A stretch of 64,000 bases of DNA from a virus (IMGVR_UViG_3300009376_001085:35132-99131); one strand, 5' to 3'. Positions 10,025 through 64,000 are shown, counted from the first letter of the stretch. Made by a program: numbers and translations. Notes: generated by a model not told the origin, from the sequence alone.

Positions 10025-10678
10025 ATGATAACATTTATTCTAGGCTTTTTATGGTGTCAAATTATATCTCATTTTGGTGCGTCTATTCTTCTTCACAGAT
10101 ATTATTGCCATAAACAAATAAAAAGAGTTCCTGTATGGTTTGAAGTTGTCGGACTATTTGGTTTAATGATAGCATATATTAGAACGCCGATTGGTTGGAT
10201 AGCTTCTCATAGGATGCATCATGCAGATTCTGATGGTCTTACAGATCCACATTCTCCCGTACAAAAAGGTTTTTGGAAAGTTCTTTTTACAATATGGCAT
10301 GTTCCGACAATTCCGTCTAAATATGCTAGAGATTTATATCAAAATCCAATACTTGTATTTTATCATAAACATTGGTTTAAGATAATTATAGCAGTATGGA
10401 TTATTTCTTTACTAATTAGTATAGAATTTTTTATTGCATTTGCATTAATGCCTTTTATATTTTCTAAGATGGGGTTTGGTTTATTAAATACTGTCGGTCA
10501 TGGTGTATCTGCACCCAATGACCAATCTAATGGTCCTCAAAATAAACCTTGGCTTAATTTCTTTATTGCTGGCGAAGGCTGGCATAAAACCCATCATGAA
10601 AAGCCTTGGCAACTACGATTACACAAATATGACACAAGCGGATTCATTGCGGAAAAGCTCTTTGCTAGAGCGATCTAA
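10025..10678 (+). CDS. membrane fatty acid desaturase (delta-9-like)
   Basis: His boxes HRYYCH, HRMHH, GEGWHKTHH; DPHSP; hydrophobic segments. Confidence 0.85.
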   Translation: MITFILGFLWCQIISHFGASILLHRYYCHKQIKRVPVWFEVVGLFGLMIAYIRTPIGWIASHRMHHADSDGLTDPHSPVQKGFWKVLFTIWHVPTIPSKYARDLYQNPILVFYHKHWFKIIIAVWIISLLISIEFFIAFALMPFIFSKMGFGLLNTVGHGVSAPNDQSNGPQNKPWLNFFIAGEGWHKTHHEKPWQLRLHKYDTSGFIAEKLFARAI

Positions 10679-11435
10679 AGCGGTTAGAACATTTCCATTA
10701 TTTCCTTTACCTGAAATAGAGTTAGATTTAACAGAAGTAAAGCATTATAATTGGAATAGTACAAATATAAAAGAATGGTTAAGTCCAATTATAGACTTAT
10801 CGGGGTTTGGATATGTTTATCCAATAAATGGTATCACAGAAGGATTAAATTATTGGATGTGGCAAGAAGATAGAATATGGATGCACAATGGAGATTATCA
10901 ATGGATAACACCTTCTGTACCACATCAAAATATGGGCATAACATATTTGACAACACCATCATCTATAGATGGAAACTTTAAAGAAGTACCTAATGTATAT
11001 AATTATGTTCTTGATATAGCATATGTAGGATCAACTAAAATTGAAAAAATTAATATACATAACAATGTACAAAAAGTATTTTTCTCATTGTCAAAATGTT
11101 TTGGTTTACGTAATATAAGAACAGGATGGTATTTTAGTAAAACACCTGATAAAAAATTAGAACTACTAATAGGATCTGCAAAATATTATAATTATTATGC
11201 ACAAGCAGTAGCCGAATATTTTATCAATAAATATGATATAGATATTGTGTATAAAACTCTTAGGCCTATACAAGAAGAGGTATGCCAGCAATTAGATTTA
11301 ATACCGTCTGATGTTGTATGGCTAGCAACAACCAATGACCCTGCATTTGAAAAATTTAGAAGAGGAGATGTTTGTCGTGTCTGCATTGCGGAAGAAATAT
11401 CAGCTGCCTACCATAGCAGAATTACCACAAATTAA
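10662..11435 (+). CDS. PLP-dependent aminotransferase-fold enzyme
   Basis: NGITEG, VLDIAY, FFSLSKCFGL..IRTGW (fold type I PLP lysine motif); likely TTG start at 10662 (track gives 10500). Confidence 0.65.
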   Translation: MLERSKAVRTFPLFPLPEIELDLTEVKHYNWNSTNIKEWLSPIIDLSGFGYVYPINGITEGLNYWMWQEDRIWMHNGDYQWITPSVPHQNMGITYLTTPSSIDGNFKEVPNVYNYVLDIAYVGSTKIEKINIHNNVQKVFFSLSKCFGLRNIRTGWYFSKTPDKKLELLIGSAKYYNYYAQAVAEYFINKYDIDIVYKTLRPIQEEVCQQLDLIPSDVVWLATTNDPAFEKFRRGDVCRVCIAEEISAAYHSRITTN

Positions 11436-12009
11436 AATAAATTTATCAAAATTAAAAGCAGAATATCTTAAATTCTGTTGGAAATTTGTAGATGTAAAAA
11501 CTGCAAATCCTCACCTATGTATGAATCATAAAAAACTTGTCAGCGAAGTTTACGATAATTTTGAACAAATAAATCTTACAGAATTAAATGGCAAGCCTAT
11601 GCCATATACTGATAACATAAAAGAAAGAATAAAACGTAGAGAAGAAACATTATACAATAAAAAGACACAAGATTATATTGGTAGTTATTTTGAAAATATA
11701 GTAGAACAATTTATATCGCCGGCTATGCGAATACGAATTACAAAACTTGCACCTAAAAAAGAAATAACATGGCACATAGATTATGATCCAACATATGCCA
11801 CAAGAATTATTATACCAATATATTCTAATAAAAAAGTCAAAAATTTATTTAAAGTTAGAAAAAATATTGAAGAATATGTTTTGGAAGAAGGTAAAGCATA
11901 TTTTCTAAATGGAGGATTTGCCCATTCAGTTAAAAATGATAGCAACGATTCAAGAATAGCATTAATGTTTAGTTTAGACGGGCAAGATGATTTAATAAAT
12001 GTACCATGA
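11335..12009 (+). CDS. aspartyl/asparaginyl beta-hydroxylase-like Fe(II)/2OG oxygenase
   Basis: RIRITKLAP...WHIDYD...IIIPI...AHSVKN...RIALM; true start probably 11368-11377. Confidence 0.7.
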   Translation: MTLHLKNLEEEMFVVSALRKKYQLPTIAELPQIKINLSKLKAEYLKFCWKFVDVKTANPHLCMNHKKLVSEVYDNFEQINLTELNGKPMPYTDNIKERIKRREETLYNKKTQDYIGSYFENIVEQFISPAMRIRITKLAPKKEITWHIDYDPTYATRIIIPIYSNKKVKNLFKVRKNIEEYVLEEGKAYFLNGGFAHSVKNDSNDSRIALMFSLDGQDDLINVP

Positions 12010-12791
12010 TACCTTACATTTTTGATAATCTACAAGATAAAAATTTAATTAAAAATTTGCAAGAAACAGGTGTTGCAGTTTCGTATGAGCAAGAATTATC
12101 TGATAGTGCATTGGTTTCTTTTTGCAAAAATATTGGTAATTGCGAAACACCCGAAGCATTTATGAATTTAACCGAACACCCTGAAATATTTAAAGTAACA
12201 GGAAAACGCAACAACGACGGATCTAAAATAGGAATGTTTGGCGATACTGAATTAGGATGGCATAGTAATGGTAATAGTAGACGCAACATAGACAAAATTT
12301 GTGTCGCATTATATTGTAAAATAAGCGACGAAAATACTACTACTAGTTTTTGTAACACAAGCGATCCGTTTTACGATTTATCAGACGAATTACAAGAGTA
12401 TTATAAAAGTATAAAAATAAGATTGGCGTTTGTAAATAATACCATTTACCAATTAGATGAGGACGATCCTGAGTATCAATTAATGAGCAGATATCCTGGG
12501 AGCATAAGACCTTTAGTTGATATACACCCTCATACTGGTAAGTATTATTTTTATTTTCCTTATCATTTTATAATAAAAGCATGGCATAATAGTAAAAAAA
12601 TAAATCATAAAAAAATGATAGAAGATTTAAAACCTATCATTTTTAAATCCAAATATCAATATCATCATATTTTTAAACAAGGCGATTTAGTATTAAGCGA
12701 TCAACTTTGTACACTACACCGACGAACGCCAGTGCATGATGTGAATAGATTACTATACAGATTAGCACATGATTATGATAGATGTACCTAA
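12006..12791 (+). CDS. TauD/TfdA-family dioxygenase
   Basis: GWHSNG, TSFCN, RPLV..HP.TG, GDLVLSDQLCTLHRR...RLLYR. Confidence 0.75.
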   Translation: MIPYIFDNLQDKNLIKNLQETGVAVSYEQELSDSALVSFCKNIGNCETPEAFMNLTEHPEIFKVTGKRNNDGSKIGMFGDTELGWHSNGNSRRNIDKICVALYCKISDENTTTSFCNTSDPFYDLSDELQEYYKSIKIRLAFVNNTIYQLDEDDPEYQLMSRYPGSIRPLVDIHPHTGKYYFYFPYHFIIKAWHNSKKINHKKMIEDLKPIIFKSKYQYHHIFKQGDLVLSDQLCTLHRRTPVHDVNRLLYRLAHDYDRCT

Positions 12792-13410
12792 ACCATCTTA
12801 TAAAAATTTTCCTATTCATAATAAAAAATTAGAAGTTCCGTTGTGTACAGAGTATACAATGGAAGACATGGCCTATCTAGATACTCCTCAGGCTAAACCT
12901 ATTTTTGAAAAACAAGCAGACATAATTATAGAAAAACAATCAAAAGGTATTGTAGATGTAGGTTGCCGGCATGGACCTGTAAACAGTATATTACATGAAA
13001 AAGGATACACAGATTATTTGTATATGGGATTTGATACGTCAGTAGAGCCTATAGAAATGGCAAAAAGCCAATGGTATAATTTTTCTAATATCGAATATAG
13101 ACATGCAAATTGGAATAACATAAAAGACATAACTGTAAATTTTAATGTAGACCAAGTTATATGGAGTGGTGTTCTTTTATATAATCCTGATAGTCATAAA
13201 GAATTATTTGATAAATTAACTGTAGAACTATATAATAGTAACAATGCAATTATACAAGAACCTTGTCATAATCAAATACATTGGGATGATAATTTAATAT
13301 TAAAAACTATAGATTTATCATCATATAAAATGTATAGTAAATATAAAGAATATATTATAAAATGCAACATATTTGCTGGCAATAGAATAATAATAGATGT
13401 AGAAATATGA
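12769..13410 (+). CDS. class I SAM-dependent methyltransferase
   Basis: IVDVGCRHG motif I, YMGFDTS motif II. Confidence 0.7.
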   Translation: MIMIDVPKPSYKNFPIHNKKLEVPLCTEYTMEDMAYLDTPQAKPIFEKQADIIIEKQSKGIVDVGCRHGPVNSILHEKGYTDYLYMGFDTSVEPIEMAKSQWYNFSNIEYRHANWNNIKDITVNFNVDQVIWSGVLLYNPDSHKELFDKLTVELYNSNNAIIQEPCHNQIHWDDNLILKTIDLSSYKMYSKYKEYIIKCNIFAGNRIIIDVEI

Positions 13411-16094: not shown

Positions 16095-16659
16095 CGATAA
16101 TCCTGAACAATATCGTTCTATTATAGAAATATTTAGAAAAAAAACATTTCAAGAAGGCAACGAAAGTCTAAGTTACAAAAAATATAATCCTGATAATCCT
16201 GATATAGAGACATGGATGGTGTTTAATGAAACCCAAGATCTTATATCTATATCTGCAGGCGAAAAATCTCATTACACAAATGATCCAGACATTGCTTTAA
16301 GAATTTGCAGATACCATATATTAAAACCATTTCGCAGAACACATTGTGGTTTAATGATGGCTGAATATCAAATACAATGGGCTAGAGAACATAATTATCA
16401 AATTTTATATGTTACTCATGATATTAAAAATAGAGCGTTGAATGATTTATATCAACGAAAACGTAAAATGCCATTACCATCATTTAAAAAATGGACAGAA
16501 GGTGAGTGGTATAAAAAATTACAACTAGAAAAAAATTTTTTATTTAAAACAGGAAATATGTTACAATATGTTTATACTATTAGATTGTTTGATCCTAACT
16601 TTATATGGAATCCAAAATCAGATTACATAGTAGAAAAAAAACATAACGGAGATATTTAA
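16066..16659 (+). CDS. GNAT-like acetyltransferase
   Basis: RYHILKPFRRTHCGLMM...WARE...ILYV resembles GNAT motif A/B. Confidence 0.45.
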   Translation: MENFLVKKYSDNPEQYRSIIEIFRKKTFQEGNESLSYKKYNPDNPDIETWMVFNETQDLISISAGEKSHYTNDPDIALRICRYHILKPFRRTHCGLMMAEYQIQWAREHNYQILYVTHDIKNRALNDLYQRKRKMPLPSFKKWTEGEWYKKLQLEKNFLFKTGNMLQYVYTIRLFDPNFIWNPKSDYIVEKKHNGDI

Positions 16660-17582
16660 TTAATTGTTTCTTTTCTCATTTGCATGTCTGTAAGACAAAT
16701 ACAAGCATGTTTGTTACATATAATAGGATCATTAGGAAGATTAATTATTCGTTTTTTAATATTTCCTAATACCCACTCGCTATCCAGACCGCAAGCAGAT
16801 CGTGTTATGGAATTATCTTCTCTAATACGGCACCCGTCTATTCCTGCATAACATTTCCAACCAAAAAAATTATCTTTTCCGGTTAATTTAGCTTCTGCTG
16901 GATCATAATACTCATTATTTAAGTATAACAAATTAGTAATTAAAGACCAATCTACATTTGTTTTCTTATTAAATAGCTTATTCCATTTTTTATGAGATAG
17001 AAATTGTTTTTGTTCATCAGTATAAGGTACATAGGCACCACCCTTATCTTCAACTAAAACTCTCATCACATACGAATTTGGATAATTTTTTAATTTGTCG
17101 TGTATGTAATAACAATTATCTAAAGACTGTTCCCAATGTGTTGGGTCTAATAAAACAGATATTACAATGGGTTTATGTTGATCGAAGATTTTACATATAT
17201 TCACTATATGATCAGATTTAGCGAATTTTGTATGCACAGAAAGTATTAAGCCTGACAAATATTTTTGATTTTCTTTCCACCAACGTAAAGTTCTAGAACC
17301 ATTTGTTATAAAATGAGTATAAACATTTCTATTATATAATTCTTTCAATAAATTGGATATTTTGGGATTTAATGTAGGTTCTCCGCCAGTAAACCTAGCA
17401 GTAAGTTGCTTATATGGATACTTTTTTTTAATTTCATCAATACACCATAAAATATCATTATTATCTAATCTAGTATTTCCTGCCCATACTAACGGTGAAC
17501 AATAAGAACACCGATAATTACAAATTGTGTTTAATACTATGTCAGTTATAAAAATATTATTATTTTCAAGAGTTAATTTCAT
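16656..17582 (-). CDS. radical SAM protein with C-terminal Cys cluster
   Basis: CNYRCSYC, FTGGEPT, TNGSR, C-terminal CYAG...C...C...CIC; likely start MKLTLE at 17582. Confidence 0.85.
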   Translation of the reverse strand: MKLTLENNNIFITDIVLNTICNYRCSYCSPLVWAGNTRLDNNDILWCIDEIKKKYPYKQLTARFTGGEPTLNPKISNLLKELYNRNVYTHFITNGSRTLRWWKENQKYLSGLILSVHTKFAKSDHIVNICKIFDQHKPIVISVLLDPTHWEQSLDNCYYIHDKLKNYPNSYVMRVLVEDKGGAYVPYTDEQKQFLSHKKWNKLFNKKTNVDWSLITNLLYLNNEYYDPAEAKLTGKDNFFGWKCYAGIDGCRIREDNSITRSACGLDSEWVLGNIKKRIINLPNDPIICNKHACICLTDMQMRKETIN

Positions 17583-18225
17583 CTGAAAAACCCCATATTC
17601 GTTCCTGACACCACCAACATATACCACAATGTCCTAATCCCGGATCTTTATTACTTTGTTTTTCCCATTCACATGATCTAGTATGTACAAATAATTTATC
17701 TATTAAATTATACTCTCTATATATTTGAGCTATTTTCTTTTTATCTATATTACACCATGGCGTATAAATTGTATTATCATATAATAGAACTTTGCGTTCG
17801 ACTGTAGGATCTCTGTTTACTTCTGAAGTTTTTTCTATAAATGTATCAGTTATATATTTTGGCGGATTTGCAGTAATGCCTGTATATATAACATTTACTA
17901 ATTTATTTTTTATATAATAATTTGTTTTATCAAATATATTACTTAATGTTTGGTGATCACAAAATGTACTATGATGTTCTATATTTATATTTCCTGTTAA
18001 CTCAATACATTTTTGAATAACATTATTAGTAATTGTTATATTTTTAAATTGTCTTGCTTTATTTCCTGACGAAAAAATATAAATCTTGTTTTTAGAATAT
18101 TTCATTAAAAAATATAAAAGCAAAGAACTATCTGCCCCGCCGCTACAACTTATACCGATAGGGCCTTCATATATTTTTAAATTGACCCCAGATAAATCTA
18201 ATTCTTTAAGTTCGACTAAATTCAT
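17566..18225 (-). CDS. QueC-like PP-loop ATPase
   Basis: SGGADS PP-loop and TRSC...HCGICWWCQER zinc motif. Confidence 0.7.
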   Translation of the reverse strand: MNLVELKELDLSGVNLKIYEGPIGISCSGGADSSLLLYFLMKYSKNKIYIFSSGNKARQFKNITITNNVIQKCIELTGNINIEHHSTFCDHQTLSNIFDKTNYYIKNKLVNVIYTGITANPPKYITDTFIEKTSEVNRDPTVERKVLLYDNTIYTPWCNIDKKKIAQIYREYNLIDKLFVHTRSCEWEKQSNKDPGLGHCGICWWCQERIWGFSDEINS

Positions 18226-20890: not shown

Positions 20891-20904
20891 TAAGAATTGT
20901 TTTT

Positions 20905-21930
20905 TTATTCTCTCTCATTTATTTTTTCTAAAAAATATTTTGCTATCCAATTATGTGATAAATGGCCAGGATGTCCTAGTTCTCGTCCAACATCATTAGA
21001 ATCCATAGTATCAAAATTGCCTTCGTCAAACCATTTATTAAAAGGTATTTCTTTACTATCTGAATATAGATATACAAACTTCGTTACTCCATTTTTATTA
21101 CATAGATATCGAATTGCATCAATATTTTTCTTAGCATTAGTTTTTGATTGATATGCATTTGAAAGTTCGTATATTAGATAATATTTAAAATATTCACGTA
21201 TTTCTCTTGTCTGACCATGACTAACAGTACCAAGGTTTACAAAAGAAAACATTCTTGATTTATTTGCACAACTACTTGTGTCTAATCCTAACTTTTGTTG
21301 TTCAAAGTAATTATTAACTTTATGATCTATATCTACAAACGAACGTCTACCTACGTTTGGTCCTAGCATACATACATATTTGGGTTTTAAAATAGGTAAC
21401 CAATATGATGCATATGTATAACATGCATCGTGTCCGGCACCTGGTAATCCAAAATTCCAACAATTTAAGTCTAATTCTTTACTTATTTTAACCGGCCATA
21501 TATCATTATAATGCATTCCAGTTCCATATGTTAAACTGCATCCTAAGAACATAATACCGTCACCTTCGTATGGATCCGATGTTCGAAATCCGTGGTTATT
21601 ATAATAATAAGTTAATGCTTCGGGTGGTACAACTTCAGAACTATTAACCCATACCTCATTTTTATTCTCTTTGTCATATTTTGGGTCAATGTCTTTTATA
21701 AAATCATAATTAGATAGCCATCCGGCGTTTTCTAGTATAGATTTTGCTTTTGCATTTTTTAAGTGATCGTTCCAAGTATCTCTGTTATCGCCACAGTCCC
21801 ACAAATAAGTTCTATTTGTTTTCCAACTATATTCATGAAAGTATGGTATTTCTTCATTGTAATTAAATGCTCCGTCTTTCCACCAGTCAACTACTTTATC
21901 AAAATCTACTTTATTGGCGTTCATTGTCAT
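20905..21930 (-). CDS. SGNH/GDSL-like protein
   Basis: NNHGFR, FLGCSLTYG, NFGLPG, RELGHPG. Confidence 0.6.
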   Translation of the reverse strand: MTMNANKVDFDKVVDWWKDGAFNYNEEIPYFHEYSWKTNRTYLWDCGDNRDTWNDHLKNAKAKSILENAGWLSNYDFIKDIDPKYDKENKNEVWVNSSEVVPPEALTYYYNNHGFRTSDPYEGDGIMFLGCSLTYGTGMHYNDIWPVKISKELDLNCWNFGLPGAGHDACYTYASYWLPILKPKYVCMLGPNVGRRSFVDIDHKVNNYFEQQKLGLDTSSCANKSRMFSFVNLGTVSHGQTREIREYFKYYLIYELSNAYQSKTNAKKNIDAIRYLCNKNGVTKFVYLYSDSKEIPFNKWFDEGNFDTMDSNDVGRELGHPGHLSHNWIAKYFLEKINERE

Positions 21931-23216
21931 ATATACCTTTCAATTCGAGGATGAAGATAATCTAAAACATTTGTATTTCTAATTTTATCTTGCATAATTG
22001 TGTGTTTTTTAAAATGAAAGCGTAACTCATCAATACTATTAGGTTTAATAGTAGGATATGATTCTTCAGGAAATATTTCCCATATTGGTTCAGTTAAACA
22101 AGTCTGTACAGGCATTAATGTTTTTTCGATAAAATATTCATCCTTTATGTTACATTCTTTTATTAGATCATTAATTTCTTTTACTATGAACTTTTTATCA
22201 TCGTCAAATAAAATAGCAGGATGGAAATGAGGTGGTTCTTCACATGCTTGAATATAAGGGGGTGCAATATTATCACCTTGTTTATATAAATTATAAAAGA
22301 ATTTACCCCAGGTTTTAACATCAAAAATATTATACATTTGCAATACTAAATTTATAGATAAATGTACAAGATTTTCCATTTCACGTAATGAATATACATT
22401 ATTAATAACTTGATCCCATTTTGCATTTGTTCGTATATAATCATATGTTTTTCCGGTTCCGTCTAAACTTGCACAAACATTCAACTTTTTAAATTGTTTA
22501 AATAATTGCCAATGTTTATTAAAATTTGTACAATTAGACGTAATATTTAAATTTAAATCAGTATTACCTTCCTCTATTAATTTTTCCAAAAATGATATTG
22601 TATCGGGATCAACTGTAGGCTCGCCTCCTAAAATATTCAACCTTTTAATAAGTTTAAAATCAATAGTAGAAATAAATTTAATTATATCCATATTAGATGT
22701 TTCCTTACGCCATCGATCGCCTCGATAATATTGATGAATTTCTGGATTGGCTGTTACTTCTTTTAATATTTCTGTACTATTTCCTGGATCACACATACGA
22801 CATTTTAAGTTACAAACATTACCTGGTCTAATATCTAAGGCCAATGGTTGTTTAAATTCGTTACCATAATTTATATCATCTGTTACAGTACCTCCATCAC
22901 GTTCTATATATTCTAATCTGTCACTGCTCCATCCTTTTCGTTCTCTATCTCCACATACATGACATTCGATAGGTTCTTCGCCTTTTAATAATTTTTTCCG
23001 TATTTCTAAAAGTTGTTTATCTTTATAAAAAAATTCTTTAAGACGATTACTAGCCGGTATGCCAGATACTTTTTCACTGAATGCTGATCGTGTTTTTCGA
23101 CCCTCACAACACATTTTTATAGAATCCTTGCCAGCATTAATATAGATATGCATAAATGGTGCCGGGCAATAAAAATCTTTACGTATTTTTATTTTTTCAT
23201 GTAACTCTGATCTCAT
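21927..23216 (-). CDS. radical SAM protein with N-terminal twitch/SPASM-like Cys cluster
   Basis: CPAPF...CC...CHVC, then CNLKCRMC, LGGEPT, SLDG. Confidence 0.9.
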   Translation of the reverse strand: MRSELHEKIKIRKDFYCPAPFMHIYINAGKDSIKMCCEGRKTRSAFSEKVSGIPASNRLKEFFYKDKQLLEIRKKLLKGEEPIECHVCGDRERKGWSSDRLEYIERDGGTVTDDINYGNEFKQPLALDIRPGNVCNLKCRMCDPGNSTEILKEVTANPEIHQYYRGDRWRKETSNMDIIKFISTIDFKLIKRLNILGGEPTVDPDTISFLEKLIEEGNTDLNLNITSNCTNFNKHWQLFKQFKKLNVCASLDGTGKTYDYIRTNAKWDQVINNVYSLREMENLVHLSINLVLQMYNIFDVKTWGKFFYNLYKQGDNIAPPYIQACEEPPHFHPAILFDDDKKFIVKEINDLIKECNIKDEYFIEKTLMPVQTCLTEPIWEIFPEESYPTIKPNSIDELRFHFKKHTIMQDKIRNTNVLDYLHPRIERYI

Positions 23217-24589
23217 TCTAAATATCTTTTTAATTGTGGCGTAATCTCTAAAACATTTGTTTTTCGTATTTTGTCTGCTACTAATGTGTGACGAACAAAT
23301 TGTTCTTTATTATATTGAATATTAGGTATCATCCAACGATCTGCTCTTTTTTCTATATTTTCTGGTATGTTATCTGTAAATTTAGATTCTTTTCTATAAT
23401 GACTTACATCTTTATTAAGATCTGAATATACTTGTTGAAAACATTCTTGTTCTTTATCATTTATGTTATAGTCATATATTACTCTATCTATTTCGCTTCT
23501 AATAAAATCTTTATGATCTTCATCTAGCCAATGTACATTTAAATGCATTGGTTCAACTATCGGATGTAGTGCTGGTGGATCTATAAATTCAAACCGTCGA
23601 CTTTGTTCTATCATCCATGCAACATGATAATAGATATGAAATACGTTATATACATTTATAACACTATTGAATCCTATACTATAAATATTAGGTAACTCAC
23701 ATGCTTTTAAAAAGTTTGCGTGAACTTTTTTCCATTCACACCCTGTTCTACAATATTCAAATACTTTTCCTATTCCGTCAACACTAAATCTTAATTGTAA
23801 TCTTTTAAATTGAGAAAGTAATTCAACTGCTTGTTTAGGCCAAACTGTGCCATTAGTAATTATGTGTAATTTTATATTTTTAGCATCGCCATGGTCTACT
23901 AATTGCTTCCATATTTTAAAACAATTAGGATCTATTAACGTTTCGCCTCCAGACATTTTCAACCATCGAACATCTGTTAAATCATAATTTTCATATAACC
24001 TAGAATTATCTTGGTCCCAGTCAATAGATTCTGCCATTCTCATTTGCCATTTATTATCAGTATACATATCCCAATATGTGCCTTCTAATAAATCATGATT
24101 ATCTAGTACTTCTTTTTCTATTTTACTACTCCAGATGCTACAACAAGATCGACATTTAGCATTACATAGTTTACCAGGACGTAAGTCTAAATCAATTGGA
24201 TGGCCATATTTATTACCTGTTTTAATATTAAGCCCCATATCTTCTACTGTTAAATCTGCATCAGAATACTTCTCTATAAATTCTACTCTTGTACTTTCTC
24301 TATCAACTCCGATTTCTTCATAGTGTTTACAATAATCGCACGGACGAGATCCATTTTCGAGAACCGGCCATTCGTTATTTAAAAATGATTTTCGTATGCT
24401 TTTAATTTTATCACCAGTCCATAATCGATGTTGTTGGGCCGCAACTGAATCGCCTTTTTTAATTGCAGGAGTATCTATTCTATCTATAATATCACTCATA
24501 CAACATAATTTAAATGCACTATTCCCCATACTTGTGTACGTATGTAAAAACGGAGCAGGACAAAATACTTTTTTTAACTGTTCTCTCAT
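23213..24589 (-). CDS. radical SAM protein with N-terminal twitch/SPASM-like Cys cluster
   Basis: CPAPF...CC...CDYC, then CNAKCRSC, SGGET, TNGT, SVDG. Confidence 0.9.
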   Translation of the reverse strand: MREQLKKVFCPAPFLHTYTSMGNSAFKLCCMSDIIDRIDTPAIKKGDSVAAQQHRLWTGDKIKSIRKSFLNNEWPVLENGSRPCDYCKHYEEIGVDRESTRVEFIEKYSDADLTVEDMGLNIKTGNKYGHPIDLDLRPGKLCNAKCRSCCSIWSSKIEKEVLDNHDLLEGTYWDMYTDNKWQMRMAESIDWDQDNSRLYENYDLTDVRWLKMSGGETLIDPNCFKIWKQLVDHGDAKNIKLHIITNGTVWPKQAVELLSQFKRLQLRFSVDGIGKVFEYCRTGCEWKKVHANFLKACELPNIYSIGFNSVINVYNVFHIYYHVAWMIEQSRRFEFIDPPALHPIVEPMHLNVHWLDEDHKDFIRSEIDRVIYDYNINDKEQECFQQVYSDLNKDVSHYRKESKFTDNIPENIEKRADRWMIPNIQYNKEQFVRHTLVADKIRKTNVLEITPQLKRYLE

Positions 24590-27027
24590 AATTCAGCTTT
24601 TCGTTTTGCTTTCAATGCCTCACGAATTCCTATTTTAATATATTTTTCATCATCTTTAAAATGTAAACCGGAAGGTTGCCACCATTTATCTTTATCATGA
24701 ACCCATGGAAATTTTTTAGGTGCTAATGCCACATGCATACATTTTGTTTCGAATAAATCATATTCTTCACATAATTCTTGATGCCACTTCAAATATTTAT
24801 TTGGAATATAATCACAACTAAAATTTTTCATTTGATTAATTCCAAGAAAAGCCATTGAAAGAGTTAAATGATTATAATCATTTGTAATAGCAATAGATCC
24901 ATCTGTAAAATTACTATATCTTATTCCTATTCTTGAATGACCGAGTCCTAAACTTTTACTAAGACTAAAACAAACTTGAGTAATTGCAGGATGATTAAAA
25001 TCAAAATCAATATCATAACAAGTACCAAACCATGCACAATCAATTAACACTGGTATATTTTTTTCATGACAAGTATCTAATGTTTGTTTATAAAAAGGTA
25101 CTTTATTACCATTTCCACAAAAAGGCATGCTAATAATCACCCAATCATTTTCATCAAGTGGTTCTTCGTAACCATCATAAATGTTGTCTATAAATTTCCA
25201 ATTATCAACAATTCTTCTATGATAGTGATATTCACCTCTATAAAATCTTAGACGTCTATCTTTATATCTATAGTATGCTTCATCAAAACTTTGAGTAGTA
25301 CCAATTGTAATATCTCGCTCACTAAATCTATCTAAACCTCTTACAGTATTTAATTTAGTTGCACATATCCATTCATGGATAGTATCTAAAAATTCTTGCT
25401 TGCATTCCCAAAAACCAGGAGCTTCAAATTCTTTTCTCCATTCCATATCTCTTAGAGAATATTGAAACTTGGGGTCAAATACAGCATGATGTTTATCTTG
25501 AAAGTAATTGCCTTTACCCATCATAGAAATTATTTTATTAGTTTTGAAATAATTTTTTGAGTCTAAATGTTTAATTATAGGTTCTGCAATTTCTGGTAAT
25601 ATTTCTTCAAATTTTTGATCTCTATGTTTATCAAGAGCAATTGTTCTATCCATAAATTCCTCAATATATTTTGATTCGTCTTTAGCCCACATATAACTAG
25701 TAATTGAATTTAAACATTTTTGGGTAACATCAATAACATATTCCGGTCCTTTAATAGCTTCATAGTGTCTCCATACTTTCTTTTTATGTACTAAATTAGG
25801 AAATATGTTTTTTAAAAAGTTATCATATTTTTGTTGTACTAACTCTTTTGCCTCTAAAGGTAATGCTCTGATATTATAATATACGGGATTGTGTAAATGA
25901 TGCATACTAAAAAATATATGTTTACCATTTATATTGAATCTCTTAAAATTTTGAGCTATTTCCCATTCAATTAATTCTGGAATATATAATACATTAAAAA
26001 CTTGTACGGTTGTAGTAAACCATCCATTTATATTATCAGAGTTATCTATTTTTCTTAATGCTTGCTCAATTTTTTGAAAATTGCTAGGATATCTTATATA
26101 CTCATTTATATGTTTTATACCATCCACACTTCCGCCAATCTCGACTAACCTAAAGTGTTTCCATAAGTCAAAACATTTATCAGGTATATTAACTAGGTTT
26201 GAATTATAATCAAGAGAAATATGCTTGGCTCTATCAGTTTCAATTAACTTTTCAAGTAAATCATATTGAGCTTTAGCTAATGTTGGTTCACCACCACTTA
26301 TATGAATCATTTCAATATTGGGTGCATTTTCAACCAATTCATTAAAGATATCAGTTCTTTCATGCCAACTGTATGGATCAAATCCATCAATAACTACATT
26401 ATTTTTATTATCAAGTTTTAAATTAACATATTTGTCATTAGCACCATCATATCTAAACTTTTTCCGTCCAAAAGCATGATACCAATCCTCCTTCCATGGA
26501 CTACTTTCTGTTGGTCCACACATTCTACATTTTAAATTACATAAATTTCCTAATCTTACATCTGTATGTAAAATAGGTGAATTAGGTTTTAAAGAACCAT
26601 CAATATCAGTAAATTTATATGCATCTTTAATAGTAAAAGATTTTAGAATTTGTTTTTCAACTAATGGTGCTTCCCAAGAAGGACATTTTAAATTACCAGT
26701 ATTTTTATTACGCTCAGCTCTCATTTCATAACGACGTCTATCAACTACCCTTCTACTATTTTGACCTGCATCTTCTTCTTCGTTACATCGCTGACACACA
26801 GGATGTCTTTCTCCCTTTAACATAGATAATCTAACATCTTTTAAAAGAGAACAATTCATTGCTTCACTAATAGATGCATTATCAGCAGTCATTATTTCAT
26901 TATTATTTTTTCTGCATACACCTCTTGTTTCTCTATGGGTATTTGCCTGAACACACATACGATATTGACCATTATTATTAATACTGAAACTAGTCCATGG
27001 TACAGGACAATAACTTTTATTTTCCAT
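24586..27027 (-). CDS. radical SAM / PLP-dependent aminotransferase-fold fusion protein
   Basis: CPVPW...CQRC, CNLKCRMC, SGGEP; C-terminal ~310 aa with GTTQSFD, LIDCAW, FSLSKSLGL...RIG. Confidence 0.85.
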   Translation of the reverse strand: MENKSYCPVPWTSFSINNNGQYRMCVQANTHRETRGVCRKNNNEIMTADNASISEAMNCSLLKDVRLSMLKGERHPVCQRCNEEEDAGQNSRRVVDRRRYEMRAERNKNTGNLKCPSWEAPLVEKQILKSFTIKDAYKFTDIDGSLKPNSPILHTDVRLGNLCNLKCRMCGPTESSPWKEDWYHAFGRKKFRYDGANDKYVNLKLDNKNNVVIDGFDPYSWHERTDIFNELVENAPNIEMIHISGGEPTLAKAQYDLLEKLIETDRAKHISLDYNSNLVNIPDKCFDLWKHFRLVEIGGSVDGIKHINEYIRYPSNFQKIEQALRKIDNSDNINGWFTTTVQVFNVLYIPELIEWEIAQNFKRFNINGKHIFFSMHHLHNPVYYNIRALPLEAKELVQQKYDNFLKNIFPNLVHKKKVWRHYEAIKGPEYVIDVTQKCLNSITSYMWAKDESKYIEEFMDRTIALDKHRDQKFEEILPEIAEPIIKHLDSKNYFKTNKIISMMGKGNYFQDKHHAVFDPKFQYSLRDMEWRKEFEAPGFWECKQEFLDTIHEWICATKLNTVRGLDRFSERDITIGTTQSFDEAYYRYKDRRLRFYRGEYHYHRRIVDNWKFIDNIYDGYEEPLDENDWVIISMPFCGNGNKVPFYKQTLDTCHEKNIPVLIDCAWFGTCYDIDFDFNHPAITQVCFSLSKSLGLGHSRIGIRYSNFTDGSIAITNDYNHLTLSMAFLGINQMKNFSCDYIPNKYLKWHQELCEEYDLFETKCMHVALAPKKFPWVHDKDKWWQPSGLHFKDDEKYIKIGIREALKAKRKAEL

Positions 27028-30000
27028 AGTTATATAACTCTTCTAGCTCAGGAAATATTTCACAAAAATTTAATTTGCGAACTACTTCTAACTTTCTAAT
27101 ATATTCGTTTGTTAATGGCAATAAATGCGATAGGTCTTCTGACCACATAAAATCTATTAATGATTGAAGTTTTCTTATACCAGTTGGTTTTTCTAATGCG
27201 TCAGTATAATGCTCGAAATTTTGTTCTAACCATTTATACAAATCAGTATACTCGTCGGATGCTTTTTCTTTTAATTCTTTTGGCAAACATTTTACACTTA
27301 AAAATTTAGGATTGTATAAAAAATGAATTCCTATCATGCCACCATGAACAGGCCACTTGTTTATTTCTATTAATTCGGGTTGAGATAGTTTCCATTTTAT
27401 TAACTCTGGTATATGAATAATATTGAAAATACTAGCGGTAGTATCTATATTTAATCTGACATTTGGATTCTCTTTTGAAAAATTATTATATTTTTTTAAG
27501 TTTTCAAGCGTTAAATCAAATTCACTCGGATATCGTAACCATTTATGTTTTAGATTTATTCCGTCAATACTTGCGGCAACTTCGACAAAATTTAATCTTT
27601 TAAGAAGATCCAATAACTCATTATCGCATACCTGAATATTAGTATTAAATCTTAAATTCATTTTTGGAGATGCATATTCGATAAATTCTCTAAATTCATT
27701 AATTATAGTTGGTTCGCCCCCTAATATATAAGCATCATTCATAAACTTCTGAGTGGCTAACTCGTCCCATGTTACTTTGTTTTTATACCAATCATATCCA
27801 CCTCTTTGCTCCTTACCTTTAGACCATTCCATTTGTTTGTATAATTTATGGCTTATATTGTCAGAATTTATAATTGTTTTCCAATCTTTAACCCAATAAC
27901 TACTGTCATCGGGGTTACATGTTGCACATGCTAAATTACATTTATTCCCTAACTTTAAATCAACATAATGTATATTTGCAGGAGCAGATCCATCAGGTGT
28001 TGTATTCCAAACAATAGAATCATAATTTAATTTTGAAAACCATTTTTTATTTTCCCAATTTCTTTTACTATTATATCCAACTTCTTCTTCTTTATAACAT
28101 TTTTGGCATTCTCGAGGTTTCTCACCTTTTAACATTGCCAATCTAACATCTCGCATATATTTGGTATTCCACTGTTCCTTCCAATTATCGTGTTTTAAAT
28201 TAACCAATTCGCCGTTGTCTTTTCTGTTACAACCAACCATAGGATGATCTTCATCGCTTCCACTATTAGCAGTACAACATAATTGCATATTGCCTGTTGT
28301 TCGTGTACTAAGATGAATCCATGGAAGTATGCAAAATCCGTTGTTTTCTTTTTCCCAAGGTGCTACCGGAGCATTATCTAGATATGCAATCATTTCTGGA
28401 TCTAAATGATTGTGGTAGTCTTGTTTTCTATTTTTGTCAAAAAATTCTGTAAATTTTTTGAGTTCTTTATGTTTCAGATCTCTAATCGGTAAATTACTAT
28501 CAACGTTTTCTACAAAATTATTGAAGTATTCTATTCTTGGTTCTATTCCCGGAATACCTTTAACATCTTTTACAAATTTTTTATATGCTTTTTTTAGCAT
28601 AGATTTAGGTAAGAATAATGGATTTAGTTCGCTTTGTTCAGGAATCATTTGAAAATCAATACATATATCTATTAATTCAGGATTAATAAAACCACAATAT
28701 TTTTCATAAAAATTACTTGCCCATCGATAAATTTCTCCTAAATTAAAAATATTATATGGCTGAGCAACAATTGAAAAACCTATAAGTGCTTTTGGAAGGA
28801 TCTCATTTTCTTGGGCCAAGAAAAAAAGATTATTATTTTGACAAAATTCAAAAAGGTTTGTAATACTTTTATTCAATAAATTCCATGAAAAAGGATATCG
28901 TATATATTCATACACATCTTTTGTTCCGTCGACTGAAATTCGTAATCTTAATTGTTTAAATTGAGATATTTTTTCTAAAACCTCATTAGTAAATTTTGTT
29001 CCGTTAGTTGTTAAATCTAATTCGATATTTTTTGCGTAATCATGTTCTATTGCATAATCAACTGCATTTAAAAATTTTTTATTTATTGTAGGTTCGCCGC
29101 CTGTTGCTTTTAATACCTCCAATTCAGGTATTGCATTAATTACATCTTGTTCTAAAAATGGTTTTTCATTGGATTTATTTAATCGTTTAACATATTGTCG
29201 CTTATATGTATCTTTGTTTAATAATTCTGGTGTAGCATAACTAAAATGATCTGGTATTTGTTGTCCGTCTTCTACATAACTTAATATTTCCTTTTGATGT
29301 TGATCACTACTTCCTGTGCTACACATTCTACATGCTAAATTACAAGTCGAGTCATATTTTATATCTAAGTATTTTAATTTTGGTTTAGTAACATCTATTT
29401 TATCTATCAAATCTTTAAACCTAGAATTCATAGCAACTCTTAAACTAGATATACCAGAATCTTCTTTTTTCCAACATGCTGAACAAATTTTTGGTCGCTC
29501 ATTATTTAAAAATTGTGATCGTATTTTATTCATATCTGGACCATAAAAGGTATCTTCAATACCAATAACCGATGTATGAAGAATATCTTTTGGATCATTT
29601 GCCATAGAATAATCTTTTATATTTTTATTACTATCACAACATGGTCGATACCATCCCGCAACACTAGATGTTAAATGTATCCATGGAAGAACACACCAAT
29701 TCGGAGTCGGAATGGTTTCGTTTTCGTCTATAAACAATCTTCGTTCTGTTTTGTTTTTTTGCTTATTTTCTTTTTCTCCCAAGTAAATTCGTCTTTTATA
29801 ACTGTTAATTAATTCTATGTTTTTAGAATTATCGACATCAATTAAACCTAAGTCGGGAAGAAAGCCATAAACAAATACATTTGAGTTAAGATTTTTTAGT
29901 AAATTTTGTAATTTTATTGCGATATTATTATAATTTTGTTGGGCCCAAAGAACAAACTCATTACCATAAATATTACTTACGAAAAAAAATGTTTTGCCAG

Positions 30001-31270
30001 GTAATTTATTAATGTATTCTGTTTGCCAACTATCATAATTATTGACAGCATCCCAATGCCAGTATGATACGTTGTGTAAATTATTTTTAAAGATATCCCA
30101 ATGATTATAAAAATTATCCTTTCCTCCCCAACGTTCTAATTCTTCCTCCCAACGTTCATCTATTTCTTCTAATCTATCTGCAAAATTAAATACTTCATAA
30201 TTGTTTTGATGTAGCATATGATGACTGAAAATACTTGAAAGACTGCTGTTTTTTGGATTCCAATCAACATGTAATTTGTATTTTAAACCTATAGAAGGTC
30301 CACTAATATCATAAAATATAACTCTTTCTTTACCTGAATAATTAAATGTATTCAAAAAATGATTTCCTAAAAATCCCGAACTTAAAAATACATAATTATC
30401 GAATTGTTTTGGAGCATCAGCTTTCTCTAATAATGGATAGAAATTTTCAAATTCTTCGGGATATGGTTCGGTATTAAATAAATAAATTTTACTTGAATAA
30501 TGGGATGTTTTGGCAAATTCTAATTTTTTAATTTCTTGTTCTACCTCTTGTATTTGTTTTTGATTATGTTGAAGTTCTTCTAAATAATAAAATTGTTTAA
30601 GTTTTCGTATTTTTTGAGTAAATGATGTAACATTATATCCATGCTTAAAAATACAATTTAAAATATTCCAGCCCCATGACATATTAGTTTCGGGTAAATA
30701 TTCTTTTGTTTTATTATTAGAATTTAACCAAGTTGGTGTATAATCATCATGTAGATTTATTTTACTCCTATTTGCATCATATATAATTTGGTCATGTAAA
30801 ATATTACCAGTATGAAGTGGACTACCTATTTTTTTCCATAATTGTAAATTAATAAAAAGTAATTGCGGATGAATTCCATACCAATGCCTTTTATGATTTA
30901 ATCTTGATGGAGCGTCATTGTCTACTAAATGGGCAAGAAGTACTGAATTAGGATTTTCTTCTGCTAATTTTACTAATTCAAAAGATAGATCTAACCGAAA
31001 AATGTTTGCTGGTTTAATAACTAATGCATATTTACGATGACTTGCTAATGCATCTTTTAAGCATTCATAAAGACTATTGCTTTCGGTATAAAAAACATTG
31101 CGATGCTGAATAGCCAATTCACCTTCTAATCCAGATCTAGTTAATTTGTCTGCCAATTCAAACATATAATCATTTGTAACTTCATCAATACAATGAGAAT
31201 TATCTGTCCAATAACAATAATATATTTCTTCTTCTGCTATAGAATTTAATTCTTTAGTTTCGTTCAACAT
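27017..31270 (-). CDS. 1417-aa protein: unknown N-terminal region plus two tandem radical SAM modules
   Basis: Module 1 CVLPW..CC..CSAC / CNLACRMC / GGEP; module 2 CILPW..CC..CQKC / CNLACATC / GGEP. Confidence 0.85.
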   Translation of the reverse strand: MLNETKELNSIAEEEIYYCYWTDNSHCIDEVTNDYMFELADKLTRSGLEGELAIQHRNVFYTESNSLYECLKDALASHRKYALVIKPANIFRLDLSFELVKLAEENPNSVLLAHLVDNDAPSRLNHKRHWYGIHPQLLFINLQLWKKIGSPLHTGNILHDQIIYDANRSKINLHDDYTPTWLNSNNKTKEYLPETNMSWGWNILNCIFKHGYNVTSFTQKIRKLKQFYYLEELQHNQKQIQEVEQEIKKLEFAKTSHYSSKIYLFNTEPYPEEFENFYPLLEKADAPKQFDNYVFLSSGFLGNHFLNTFNYSGKERVIFYDISGPSIGLKYKLHVDWNPKNSSLSSIFSHHMLHQNNYEVFNFADRLEEIDERWEEELERWGGKDNFYNHWDIFKNNLHNVSYWHWDAVNNYDSWQTEYINKLPGKTFFFVSNIYGNEFVLWAQQNYNNIAIKLQNLLKNLNSNVFVYGFLPDLGLIDVDNSKNIELINSYKRRIYLGEKENKQKNKTERRLFIDENETIPTPNWCVLPWIHLTSSVAGWYRPCCDSNKNIKDYSMANDPKDILHTSVIGIEDTFYGPDMNKIRSQFLNNERPKICSACWKKEDSGISSLRVAMNSRFKDLIDKIDVTKPKLKYLDIKYDSTCNLACRMCSTGSSDQHQKEILSYVEDGQQIPDHFSYATPELLNKDTYKRQYVKRLNKSNEKPFLEQDVINAIPELEVLKATGGEPTINKKFLNAVDYAIEHDYAKNIELDLTTNGTKFTNEVLEKISQFKQLRLRISVDGTKDVYEYIRYPFSWNLLNKSITNLFEFCQNNNLFFLAQENEILPKALIGFSIVAQPYNIFNLGEIYRWASNFYEKYCGFINPELIDICIDFQMIPEQSELNPLFLPKSMLKKAYKKFVKDVKGIPGIEPRIEYFNNFVENVDSNLPIRDLKHKELKKFTEFFDKNRKQDYHNHLDPEMIAYLDNAPVAPWEKENNGFCILPWIHLSTRTTGNMQLCCTANSGSDEDHPMVGCNRKDNGELVNLKHDNWKEQWNTKYMRDVRLAMLKGEKPRECQKCYKEEEVGYNSKRNWENKKWFSKLNYDSIVWNTTPDGSAPANIHYVDLKLGNKCNLACATCNPDDSSYWVKDWKTIINSDNISHKLYKQMEWSKGKEQRGGYDWYKNKVTWDELATQKFMNDAYILGGEPTIINEFREFIEYASPKMNLRFNTNIQVCDNELLDLLKRLNFVEVAASIDGINLKHKWLRYPSEFDLTLENLKKYNNFSKENPNVRLNIDTTASIFNIIHIPELIKWKLSQPELIEINKWPVHGGMIGIHFLYNPKFLSVKCLPKELKEKASDEYTDLYKWLEQNFEHYTDALEKPTGIRKLQSLIDFMWSEDLSHLLPLTNEYIRKLEVVRKLNFCEIFPELEELYNYGK

Positions 31271-32664: not shown

Positions 32665-33301
32665 ATGACTTTTTAAATTTTTCCCAACTTCTAATTAGTA
32701 TAGGGGACCAAAATTTCCAATCTAACCTTGCACCATTACATATTATATGATATCTAGGTTTATCTCCATTGTTTGTAACTGTATGATCCCATACATTAGA
32801 AAAAAACCAAGTAGATCCGTTTTTAATAGGAATATTACCCCAATGAGGCATAGTAAAATCACACCCTTCGGGATGTTGTATAGAAAAATGCAATACTCCT
32901 AACTGCTTCATTTGTTGTTCTAATGGAATTACAGGGTCATCTCTATCATTATGTAAGAAAATAGATCCACCAGGATCTATTTTCATAAATCTAGTTCTTC
33001 GTTGACTTTTTATTCCGGCATTATTTTGTAAGAAGTTTTTTGTTACTGGACATTTATCTGCTATACTTGTCCAATCATATTTAACATCGTTATCAGTATG
33101 ATATACATTTGTATGATCGCCATCAATTCCATACAATGCTAAACTAGACCAACCAATTCCGTCGCTTTTTCTATAAGGCACCCATTCAGTCATCTGTTCA
33201 ACTTCAGGAAGAATGCTTTCCCACGGACATTTAAAATCTAACATTAACCAAGGCAATCCAGTTTGGGTTCGAATCCAGTCAATGTAATTATTTTGATTCA
33301 T
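32645..33301 (-). CDS. aspartyl/asparaginyl beta-hydroxylase-like oxygenase
   Basis: RTRFMKIDPGGSIFLHND...WDHTVTN...PRYHII. Confidence 0.75.
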   Translation of the reverse strand: MNQNNYIDWIRTQTGLPWLMLDFKCPWESILPEVEQMTEWVPYRKSDGIGWSSLALYGIDGDHTNVYHTDNDVKYDWTSIADKCPVTKNFLQNNAGIKSQRRTRFMKIDPGGSIFLHNDRDDPVIPLEQQMKQLGVLHFSIQHPEGCDFTMPHWGNIPIKNGSTWFFSNVWDHTVTNNGDKPRYHIICNGARLDWKFWSPILIRSWEKFKKSYAETTF

Positions 33302-33612
33302 TATTTTTTATTAATGCTATCAATAAAAACATCTCTGTCTTTAATTTCACATGTTTTTTTACATTTCTCAACAGGATTATTGGTATTCCAAGAATTTATA
33401 ATACCATTAAACAACGAACCATCTAATACTTCTTGTATAGTATTATTATACAAACTATTATCATACTTGGCATTAAGTTCACCAAATAAAGTTTTCGGTT
33501 GATTTCCTGCTAACATATTTAACGATTCTGAATTCACATAACAGCAAGGTATTAATTCGCCTAAATGATTTATGAATAGTCGTTTTTGATTTCCGTATTT
33601 ACATTCTATCAT
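33301..33612 (-). CDS. stand-alone SPASM/twitch domain protein
   Basis: IECK...LFINHLGELIPCC...CKKTC, homologous by eye to the C-terminus of 35008-36069. Confidence 0.75.
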   Translation of the reverse strand: MIECKYGNQKRLFINHLGELIPCCYVNSESLNMLAGNQPKTLFGELNAKYDNSLYNNTIQEVLDGSLFNGIINSWNTNNPVEKCKKTCEIKDRDVFIDSINKK

Positions 33613-63608: not shown

Positions 63609-64000
63609 TCACACTATTTTTTGTGCAACGATAACTCTTTCTTTGTCATTAAACCCCATTAGAATGGTGTCACTTTCTGTTAAATTATTTTCTTTACATA
63701 CATCAGAATATATATCAGCAAATTTATCCCAATTATAATCTACATTATATTCTGTAATGAGAGCATTGGCAATACTTATATTGATTCTGCTAAACATATT
63801 GCATTCATTAAAAAAATCTATACCATCATCGATATTTTCTTTTTGCATTCGCACTCCAATTCGTAAATATTCCGCACCATAACAAAATTTAGATAAACTA
63901 AATGCTAATGTTTCTATACAAGTATATTTTTTTAAATCTATGTTTATATTTTTAGAAACAGGATAATGACAAAAATCTAATAATACTGGTACTTGCAATT
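63609..64000 (-). CDS. PLP-dependent aminotransferase-fold enzyme (5' end outside the window)
   Basis: VLLDFCH, AFSLSKF...LRIGVR; resembles 10662-11435 and the fused domain in 24586-27027. Confidence 0.65.
   Translation of the reverse strand, partial: LQVPVLLDFCHYPVSKNINIDLKKYTCIETLAFSLSKFCYGAEYLRIGVRMQKENIDDGIDFFNECNMFSRINISIANALITEYNVDYNWDKFADIYSDVCKENNLTESDTILMGFNDKERVIVAQKIV

Follow-up and report, generated by a model that had tools for sequence, protein, structure and literature searches.

Recurrent fusion of a radical SAM module and a PLP-fold domain in a gene island of a marine jumbo phage

A single gene of an uncultured marine jumbo (giant) phage joins two enzymes in one chain, an N-terminal-twitch (N-twitch) radical S-adenosylmethionine (SAM) module and a fold-type-I pyridoxal 5'-phosphate (PLP) domain. 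It lies on the minus strand of a stretch of 64,000 nucleotides (hereafter the window), bases 35132-99131 of the 99,131-bp IMG/VR record IMGVR_UViG_3300009376_001085 (CheckV completeness 28%). We consider it very likely that the fusion is real and that its two modules are functionally coupled. An earlier note made from the same DNA had described the architecture without giving the strand. The parts of the gene are as follows, in window coordinates:

24586..27027, minus strand, whole fused gene, 813 amino acids plus stop; radical SAM module, linker and PLP-fold domain in a single open frame
25582..27021, minus strand, radical SAM module (NF033640), residues 3-482; N-terminal twitch, partial TIM-barrel core and C-terminal helical part
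26785..27009, minus strand, N-terminal twitch (auxiliary Fe-S) cysteines C7, C25, C78 and C81; weak Pfam SPASM match over residues 7-82
26518..26541, minus strand, CX3CX2C motif C163/C167/C170, LGNLCNLKCRMCGP, predicted site of the SAM-cleaving 4Fe-4S cluster
25513..25581, minus strand, interdomain linker, about residues 483-505; variable in length and sequence among fused relatives, with low pLDDT where the C-terminal model begins
24589..25512, minus strand, fold-type-I (class I/II aminotransferase-like) PLP domain, about residues 506-813; compact, about 310 residues
25039..25041, minus strand, predicted PLP ligand D663, by HMMER alignment to HisC and 3if2
24955..24957, minus strand, predicted PLP ligand K691, aligned by HMMER with the Lys of SKAF
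24931..24933, minus strand, predicted PLP ligand R699, the phosphate Arg, by HMMER alignment

The fused frame is continuous across the junction

The frame runs through 813 codons without a stop or frameshift. It overlaps the genes on either side, its start running into the end of an upstream gene for a 1417-residue protein and its stop into the beginning of the gene that follows. The landmarks by which the earlier note had placed the junction were located at residues 465-478 (DKHRDQKFEEILPE, given as the end of the radical SAM module) and at residues 502-506 (MMGKG, given as the opening of the PLP domain, with its first Met codon at 25524..25522). The internal Met-Met of the latter (residues 502-503, 25519..25524) is in frame near the domain boundary.

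That note had asked for read support across the junction, and contigs of three other studies were found to bridge 25520-25600 with zero indels (X7 record 9 at 25288-27200, X8 record 14 at 25339-26034 and X9 record 21 at 25126-25990), each differing from the window by 4-11 substitutions. A single X8 contig carries a 1-base deletion at 26272 at a depth of 5, which we take as a single-contig error or variant. A 98%-identical protein cluster of 813 residues exists on other contigs, and six IMG/VR loci with 64-66% identity share the same frame of 820-826 residues. The Met-Met is missing from all 10 aligned fused relatives. An assembly artefact and separate translation of the halves from the internal Met, either of which the note had said would undo the fusion, are therefore largely ruled out by the bridging contigs and by the unconserved Met-Met. 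Shine-Dalgarno motifs are lacking at genuine starts in the surrounding gene island too, so a check of the internal Met for such a motif is uninformative, and a scan for promoters and terminators around the fused gene gave no difference from shuffled sequence.

The N-terminal part is a complete N-twitch radical SAM module

The NCBIfam model NF033640 (N_Twi_rSAM) matches the N-terminal part at 1.5e-95, with 320.6 bits against a cut-off of 170 (320.8 bits when scored on the DNA), and Pfam Radical_SAM (PF04055) matches residues 159-331 at 2.3e-10, with 41.4 bits against a cut-off of 29.5. Since the NF033640 match covers model positions 1-396 of 398 and both the CX3CX2C and the twitch cysteines are present, the module is complete, as the earlier note had held. 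In an alignment of 92 relatives, C7, C78, C81, C163, C167, C170 and G245-G246-E247 show no variation and C25 shows almost none, which points to an N-terminal four-Cys twitch subdomain together with a canonical SAM cluster. The module is thus an N-twitch radical SAM enzyme with two predicted clusters, a SAM-cleaving 4Fe-4S cluster and an auxiliary one.

The DNA for the CX3CX2C motif (26515..26553) attracted extra contigs in all four runs, at up to 31-fold depth compared with about 5. These contigs belong to other genes or phages, indicating that the stretch is conserved at the nucleotide level among paralogues.

The AlphaFold model of the radical module has a pLDDT of 92.3. By VIA it matches solved radical SAM enzymes at moderate strength (Z 11-12.7 for the best), led by anSMEcpe, an anaerobic sulfatase-maturating enzyme (anSME; Z 12.7), BlsE (12.4), pyruvate formate-lyase activase (12.4), CteB (12.0), viperin (11.9) and SkfB (11.8), with DesII (9.8) and AprD4 (8.7) lower down, and SkfB, CteB, anSME, SuiB and BlsE take the top ranks in Foldseek.

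The C-terminal part is a member of a large PLP family found mostly in viruses

Family models recognise the C-terminal part faintly. Pfam Aminotran_1_2 (PF00155) gives a partial match over residues 619-706 with an E of 0.0024 and 17.6 bits, below its cut-off of 19.7, which is passed by 5 of 24 scanned relatives (24-28 bits). Valine-pyruvate transaminase models match at E 0.002-0.02, and a phmmer search of the PLP part against the PDB gave nothing meaningful. A profile of 129 relatives searched against the PDB found class I/II PLP enzymes only (3if2 at 2e-4, HisC at 0.014). The AlphaFold model built from the family alignment has a pLDDT of 90.5, and Foldseek returned at least 500 matches at E<=0.001 (best 7e-11), with the class I/II aminotransferase fold throughout among the matches listed. 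VIA aligned the domain at Z about 20-21 over 290-305 of 336 residues, nearly the whole of both chains.

In the HMMER alignments, D663 falls on the Asp of DEAY, and S688 is a further predicted ligand. The cofactor site is strongly conserved among the 129 relatives, with the Asp kept in 128, the Lys in 126 and the phosphate Arg in 124, and an aromatic residue stands three positions past the Asp in 120. Near the C-terminus, an N-R-(V/L/I) motif keeps Arg or Lys in 101 of the 129 and, by motif resemblance, would hold the carboxylate-binding Arg. Together the modelled fold and the conserved cofactor residues suggest that the PLP domain is an apparently catalytically competent fold-type-I enzyme.

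Relatives of the domain are numerous. Among 1.84 billion representative proteins, 392 matched at E<=0.001 and 68 at <=1e-30; the 150 best comprise 144 stand-alone proteins of 119-363 residues and six longer ones. The PLP part has no counterpart family in PHROGs or NCBIfam, and the ESM Atlas places the domain beside clusters auto-named class I/II aminotransferase that are 82-100% viral. The PLP domain is therefore a member of a large, mostly viral family of 392 representative clusters that is unnamed in current libraries. Among GTDB species genomes, all 18 loci with close PLP relatives are in Bdellovibrionota, some of them on megabase chromosomal contigs; as the prokaryote genome scan used narrow patterns, this range is a lower bound. 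Against 50,697 phage records, the whole fused protein gave one radical SAM match of 15% coverage in tblastn, the PLP part alone gave none, and megablast of window positions 20000-32000 gave none.

The earlier note had also claimed stand-alone paralogues of the PLP domain elsewhere in the window. A first search of the phage's own genome with the PLP part found only itself, and sensitive family-profile searches then gave two paralogues:

10500..11435, plus strand, stand-alone PLP-fold paralogue of 311 residues; family profile 3.5e-33, with shared P..D, FSLSK and R.G motifs
63609..63998, minus strand, third family member, C-terminal 129 residues, cut by the contig end; family profile 1.3e-40 and alignment

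The first indeed stands alone, flanked by a fatty-acid-desaturase-like gene and cupin/TauD dioxygenase genes. The second, cut by the contig end, lies directly upstream of an N-twitch radical SAM open reading frame (ORF), 61882..63588, that matches NF033640.

Fusions in both orders and split gene pairs couple the two enzymes

The earlier note had read the fusion as a Rosetta-stone link between the radical SAM array and amination, and it had proposed a search for the same architecture in other genomes. A search limited to proteins of 447-1423 residues yielded 23 clusters of long relatives (698-845 residues) whose PLP parts are 45-98% identical, and PF04055 is present in 22 of them. The two families thus share one chain in 22 of the 23 clusters, and they do so in both orders. 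The N-twitch module precedes the PLP domain in P0008, P0015 and P0018. In P0009, P0024 and P0026 (about 700 residues) the PLP domain comes first and a complete NF033640 module follows at residues 303-698, a reverse order that is also present in four IMG/VR loci. In a FastTree topology of 128 PLP domains, which was read without branch supports and from which two rows with fewer than 200 aligned positions were left out, N-twitch fusions are spread over at least three clades, with unfused members in between.

The same partnership is seen between separate genes. We fetched 98 loci (80 viral and 18 bacterial) with 104 family genes, which collapse to 72 clusters at 90% identity. Of these 72, four are fusions. 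Another 30 have an N-twitch-like gene no more than 150 bp away on the same strand, in many cases with an overlap of 4-50 bases; five adjoin one on the opposite strand, and 16 have one within 5 kb. One split pair (L020) is 39% identical to the radical SAM half and 44% identical to the PLP half of the fused protein, and in this locus and in L089, L093-L095 and L099 no gene of the locus matches the radical module better than the neighbouring radical SAM gene does, at 34-39% identity. Fusions in both orders and split, translationally coupled gene pairs indicate that N-twitch radical SAM enzymes and PLP enzymes act together, and the Rosetta-stone reading is upheld.

Neighbouring genes suggest that an amine is formed on a sugar or cyclitol

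The commonest neighbour within 5 kb, radical SAM genes aside, is a cluster found in 33 of the 80 viral loci that has no Pfam match at E 0.001. The ESM Atlas first suggested an amidinotransferase, and a profile search followed, in which the cluster's profile matched StrB1, the L-arginine:inosamine-phosphate amidinotransferase (PDB 1bwd), at 7.9e-107 over the full length, with HsvA, SxtG and glycine amidinotransferase as the next matches. By profile, a StrB1 homologue is present in 34 of the 80 viral and two of the 18 bacterial loci (L088 and L097), many of them near-duplicates; one example is L064:9811-10866. Amidinotransferases require a primary amine. Other recurrent neighbours in the viral loci are a small HxD...H cupin (28), Asp/Arg-hydroxylase-like cupins (22/80), NAD epimerase/dehydratase (11/80), GTP cyclohydrolase I (10) and UDP-glucose dehydrogenase (5/80).

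Distant stand-alone members of the PLP family (L028, L036, L059, L064, L067, L076 and others) sit in a recurring module that runs from an unknown 399-residue protein through an NAD epimerase, a short radical SAM protein, a small cupin and the PLP-fold protein to the amidinotransferase, UDP-glucose dehydrogenase, a phosphoribosyltransferase and GTP cyclohydrolase I. PDB profile searches with the neighbour families 'unk399' and 'unk380' gave nothing.

Three of the four Pfam-scanned loci of Bdellovibrionota (L085, L090 and L094) place the family gene with GT2 glycosyltransferases, PMT_2, UDP-sugar dehydrogenases, epimerases, a DegT aminotransferase or a polysaccharide lyase; the fourth (L082) has two N-twitch genes, otherwise housekeeping neighbours and zero sugar genes. 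Pelagimyophages are described as carrying hypervariable host recognition clusters with lipopolysaccharide-sugar genes and radical SAM cassettes (PMC7029224). The nearby StrB1-like amidinotransferase, enzymes of nucleoside diphosphate (NDP)-sugars and small dioxygenases thus point to a step in which a sugar- or cyclitol-like molecule gains an amine.

Comparison with characterised systems

The pairing of a radical SAM enzyme with an aminotransferase is a known logic, represented by BtrN/BtrS and by DesI/DesII/DesV. In the synthesis of the 2-deoxystreptamine of butirosin, BtrN, a twitch-type radical SAM enzyme, is paired with the PLP aminotransferase BtrS (BtrR), and the two are separate proteins; the twitch domain of BtrN is C-terminal to its radical SAM core, and BtrS/BtrR belongs to the DegT/DnrJ/EryC1 family. 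The system analysed here follows the same logic, a radical SAM enzyme with an auxiliary cluster plus a PLP enzyme, with aminocyclitol-type neighbours (the StrB1-like amidinotransferase, a carbamoyltransferase) in related loci or in the window. The likeness that the earlier note had drawn to BtrN/BtrR does not extend to the families, since the PLP domain is class I/II-like and PF01041 (DegT/DnrJ/EryC1) found no match in the fused protein at E<=0.01 in Pfam, the twitch cysteines (residues 7-81) are N-terminal to the core, and the radical fold matches are tied. BtrN is not among the 50 best Foldseek or VIA matches listed, an absence that is no evidence of difference. The comparison with BtrN/BtrR therefore holds as an analogy only.

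Each half has closer comparisons. The radical module shares with NF033640 a whole-model match, the four-Cys N-terminal twitch and CX3CX2C, but members of that family are catalogued as stand-alone proteins of about 400 residues with no known function, whereas the fused protein adds a C-terminal PLP domain. The best VIA matches to the radical core, anSMEcpe and BlsE, differ in having the auxiliary-cluster domain at the C-terminus, are 16-18% identical to it and tie with enzymes of unrelated chemistries; anSME forms a carbonyl by oxidising an alcohol or thiol, and BlsE acts on a nucleoside sugar acid. With the class I/II enzymes (HisC, kynurenine aminotransferase, 1-aminocyclopropane-1-carboxylate (ACC) synthase, the PatB/MalY C-S lyases and CobD), the PLP domain shares the fold over the whole domain and the aligned Asp, Ser-x-Ser-Lys and Arg motifs. 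They are, however, 360-420 residues long compared with about 310, their identity to it is 7-13%, and the Asn that binds O3' of PLP in them is replaced here.

Among the 50,697 phage records, the sole match to the PLP family, obtained with a distant family member as the query, is Mosig_00079 of Pelagibacter phage Mosig EXVC030M, a 'putative aminotransferase' (25% identity, 2e-9). This protein is uncharacterised and, unlike the fused protein, is stand-alone, with 262 residues. Its island resembles the one described here in having a fatty-acid-desaturase-like gene, TauD, a methylase, MoaA-like radical SAM genes and a carbamoyltransferase, beside tail-fibre genes. Window positions 10025..13410 (plus strand) mirror Mosig_00080 to Mosig_00074, with fatty-acid-desaturase-like, PLP-fold paralogue, Asp/Arg-hydroxylase-like, TauD and methyltransferase genes.

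A phage precedent for adjacent radical SAM and PLP genes acting consecutively on one substrate is described in PMC8989533, in which the radical SAM isomerase gp53 and the PLP decarboxylase gp52 of phage M6 act on DNA-bound glycine in thymidine hypermodification. According to that source, the M6 radical SAM enzyme is spore-photoproduct-lyase-like and the PLP enzyme has a different fold; both differ in this from the enzymes here, as does the substrate (PMC8989533). A role in DNA hypermodification was set aside, since the M6 enzymes come from other families and neither a 5-hydroxymethyldeoxyuridine kinase nor an amino-acid:DNA transferase was seen in a Pfam scan of the window's ORFs. In the full-text literature that could be searched (subscription journals are outside its coverage), neither an N-twitch family enzyme nor a covalent radical SAM/aminotransferase fusion nor the class-I-fold PLP family is described.

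Proposed pathway and alternatives

The account that we favour as a whole, with somewhat less than even confidence, is that the coupled modules form a carbonyl and then aminate it with PLP on a sugar, nucleotide-sugar or cyclitol. The two modules would catalyse consecutive steps of one tailoring pathway, which would belong to a 47-kb island of radical SAM enzymes, dioxygenases, and methyl- and carbamoyltransferases. Their substrate would be small and hydrophilic, with a sugar, nucleotide-sugar or cyclitol as the likeliest candidate. The radical module would abstract a hydrogen and yield a carbonyl, as anSME and BtrN do, and the PLP module would turn this carbonyl into an amine with an alpha-amino acid as the donor. 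Relatives that have a StrB1-like enzyme may go on to amidinate the new amine. We infer the substrate class, the order of the steps and transamination itself from the architecture, cofactor residues, recurrence and neighbourhoods observed.

Several observations weigh against this account. Neither family has a characterised enzyme or an identified substrate. The best fold matches of the radical module lie within 1 Z of each other and include a dehydrogenase, a decarboxylase, an activase, a thioether-forming enzyme and a dehydratase, several of them peptide-modifying, so the fold gives no reaction assignment. On the PLP side, ACC synthase (Z 21.1), C-S lyases (20.8), MalY and the decarboxylase CobD tie with aminotransferases, and transamination is therefore not singled out. 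In the NPTG motif of class I aminotransferases, the Asn hydrogen-bonds O3' of PLP; in its place this protein has Cys, and Ser (68), Ala (28) and Cys (8) are found among the 129 relatives. The putative carboxylate-binding Arg position is occupied by a Lys, K798. The PLP domain is also found fused to a B12-binding radical SAM protein (P0013), a PhyH dioxygenase (P0056) and a class I methyltransferase (P0079) and is thus not tied to a single chemistry, and 17 of the 72 family genes have zero N-twitch genes in the fetched locus. Finally, no glycosyltransferase was found among the window ORFs scanned with Pfam, and a profile search found no StrB1-like amidinotransferase on the 99-kb contig.

Some of these points feed a reading that we regard as possible, if unlikely, in which the coupling is the same but the PLP module works as a decarboxylase, beta/gamma-lyase or ACC-synthase-like enzyme whose substrate is SAM, a fragment of SAM or an intermediate that bears an amino acid. 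Such a reading would suit the tied fold matches and the replaced O3'-binding Asn, the four types of fusion partner include three that use SAM (N-twitch, B12-radical SAM and methyltransferase), and the adjacent pair of phage M6, though from different families, isomerises and then decarboxylates (PMC8989533). Transamination is favoured over it by the frequent neighbour that requires a primary amine, and by the Arg/Lys kept at the carboxylate-binding position typical of aminotransferases with amino-acid donors. The above-cut-off Pfam matches of relatives are likewise to Aminotran_1_2, though that family includes lyases.

A reversal of the steps is improbable in our view. In the DesI/DesII/DesV pathway, PLP amination of a keto-sugar precedes the radical SAM step, and by this precedent the amine would be put on a keto-sugar first, after which the radical SAM enzyme would deaminate, dehydrate, epimerise or rearrange the amino compound. 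Because both domain orders exist in the fusions, gene order gives no direction of the steps, which leaves room for such a reversal, and genes for NAD epimerases/dehydratases, which could supply a keto-sugar, are neighbours in 11 of the 80 viral loci and in Bdellovibrio L085. DesII and AprD4 do appear among the radical fold matches, but they score below anSME and BlsE, and removal of the amine would leave the neighbouring amidinotransferase without a substrate unless another position were used.

Modification of a protein or peptide, with a peptide-bound residue of a tail fibre, another virion protein or a product resembling peptides that are made by the ribosome and modified after translation (RiPPs) as the substrate, is quite improbable. 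The best Foldseek matches are the peptide maturases SkfB, CteB and SuiB, plus anSME, which has a protein substrate; several Asp/Asn beta-hydroxylase-like cupins occur in the window and in 22 of the 80 loci; and the related Mosig island abuts tail-fibre genes. The PLP active site, however, keeps the features that bind a free alpha-amino or keto acid, and the recurrent partners are the StrB1-like amidinotransferase and NDP-sugar genes. A precursor-peptide gene was not identified, though no search of short ORFs was made, and Pfam found no RiPP recognition element. Lastly, an artefactual junction, or halves translated separately from the internal Met, is extremely improbable given the three bridging studies, the frame shared by six IMG/VR loci and the unconserved Met-Met, even if that Met-Met lies in frame close to the domain boundary and an additional internal start is compatible with the DNA.

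The phage and its radical SAM island

By its genes, the record is a phage, with a T4-type DNA polymerase (phrog_262, 4e-191), endonuclease V, an endolysin, and QueE-like and GTP-cyclohydrolase genes. The DNA polymerase is 43-47% identical to those of jumbo myoviruses (350-490 kb) such as Atu_ph07, Phosso and GAP32, the GC content is about 29%, and the stretch or portions of it are present in marine metagenomes from seven studies. The fused gene lies within a co-directional island that runs to the contig end:

16656..63998, minus strand, co-directional island of about 47 kb, with genes often overlapping
27017..31270, minus strand, upstream overlapping gene of 1417 residues; an N-terminal part of about 500 residues plus two tandem complete N-twitch radical SAM modules
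23213..24589, minus strand, downstream overlapping N-twitch radical SAM gene; NF033640 above cut-off, and Pfam
21927..23216, minus strand, next downstream overlapping N-twitch radical SAM gene; NF033640 above cut-off, and Pfam
40358..41833, minus strand, sodium:solute symporter, island gene
42812..44314, minus strand, NodU/TobZ-type carbamoyltransferase, island gene

The island holds sixteen radical SAM ORFs with seventeen modules, and ten N-twitch modules on the 99-kb contig score above the NF033640 cut-off. Its other genes include 2-oxoglutarate/TauD/cupin oxygenases and methyltransferase, cytidylyltransferase-like and kinase-like genes. The 1417-residue protein has a Pfam radical SAM match and passes the NF033640 cut-off twice, and its gene is conserved next to the fusion, on the upstream side, in six related loci (L002-L007); the N-terminal 500 or so residues gave no match in Pfam or in a PDB profile search. 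Elsewhere in the island, a QueC/asparagine-synthase-like PP-loop ORF (17566..18225, minus strand) directly adjoins a radical SAM gene (16656..17627, minus strand), and an ORF of 103 residues (33301..33612, minus strand) matches the SPASM/twitch domain only (Pfam, 2e-4) and may be a free-standing auxiliary-cluster domain or the remnant of an N-twitch gene.

Significance

A wider possibility, which we consider rather unlikely, is that marine jumbo and pelagiphage-like viruses encode a modular, oxygen-independent pathway to an aminoglycoside- or streptidine-like amino- or guanidino-cyclitol or sugar. If so, it would proceed through radical SAM oxidation and class-I-fold transamination to amidination of the StrB1 type and carbamoylation of the TobZ type, with the fused protein as a committed oxidise-and-aminate catalyst, and the product would decorate the virion or the infected-cell surface or act as a diffusible compound.

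N-twitch radical SAM enzymes are among the most expanded families in the islands of marine giant phages, with ten modules here, and their substrates are not known. The covalent fusion provides the first concrete functional partner for this family and, together with the StrB1-like neighbour, narrows its chemistry to the formation or handling of a primary amine carried by a small polar scaffold. The analysis also defines the large, mostly viral PLP family to which the C-terminal domain belongs, and it nominates a single expressible protein of 93 kDa as a biochemical entry point.

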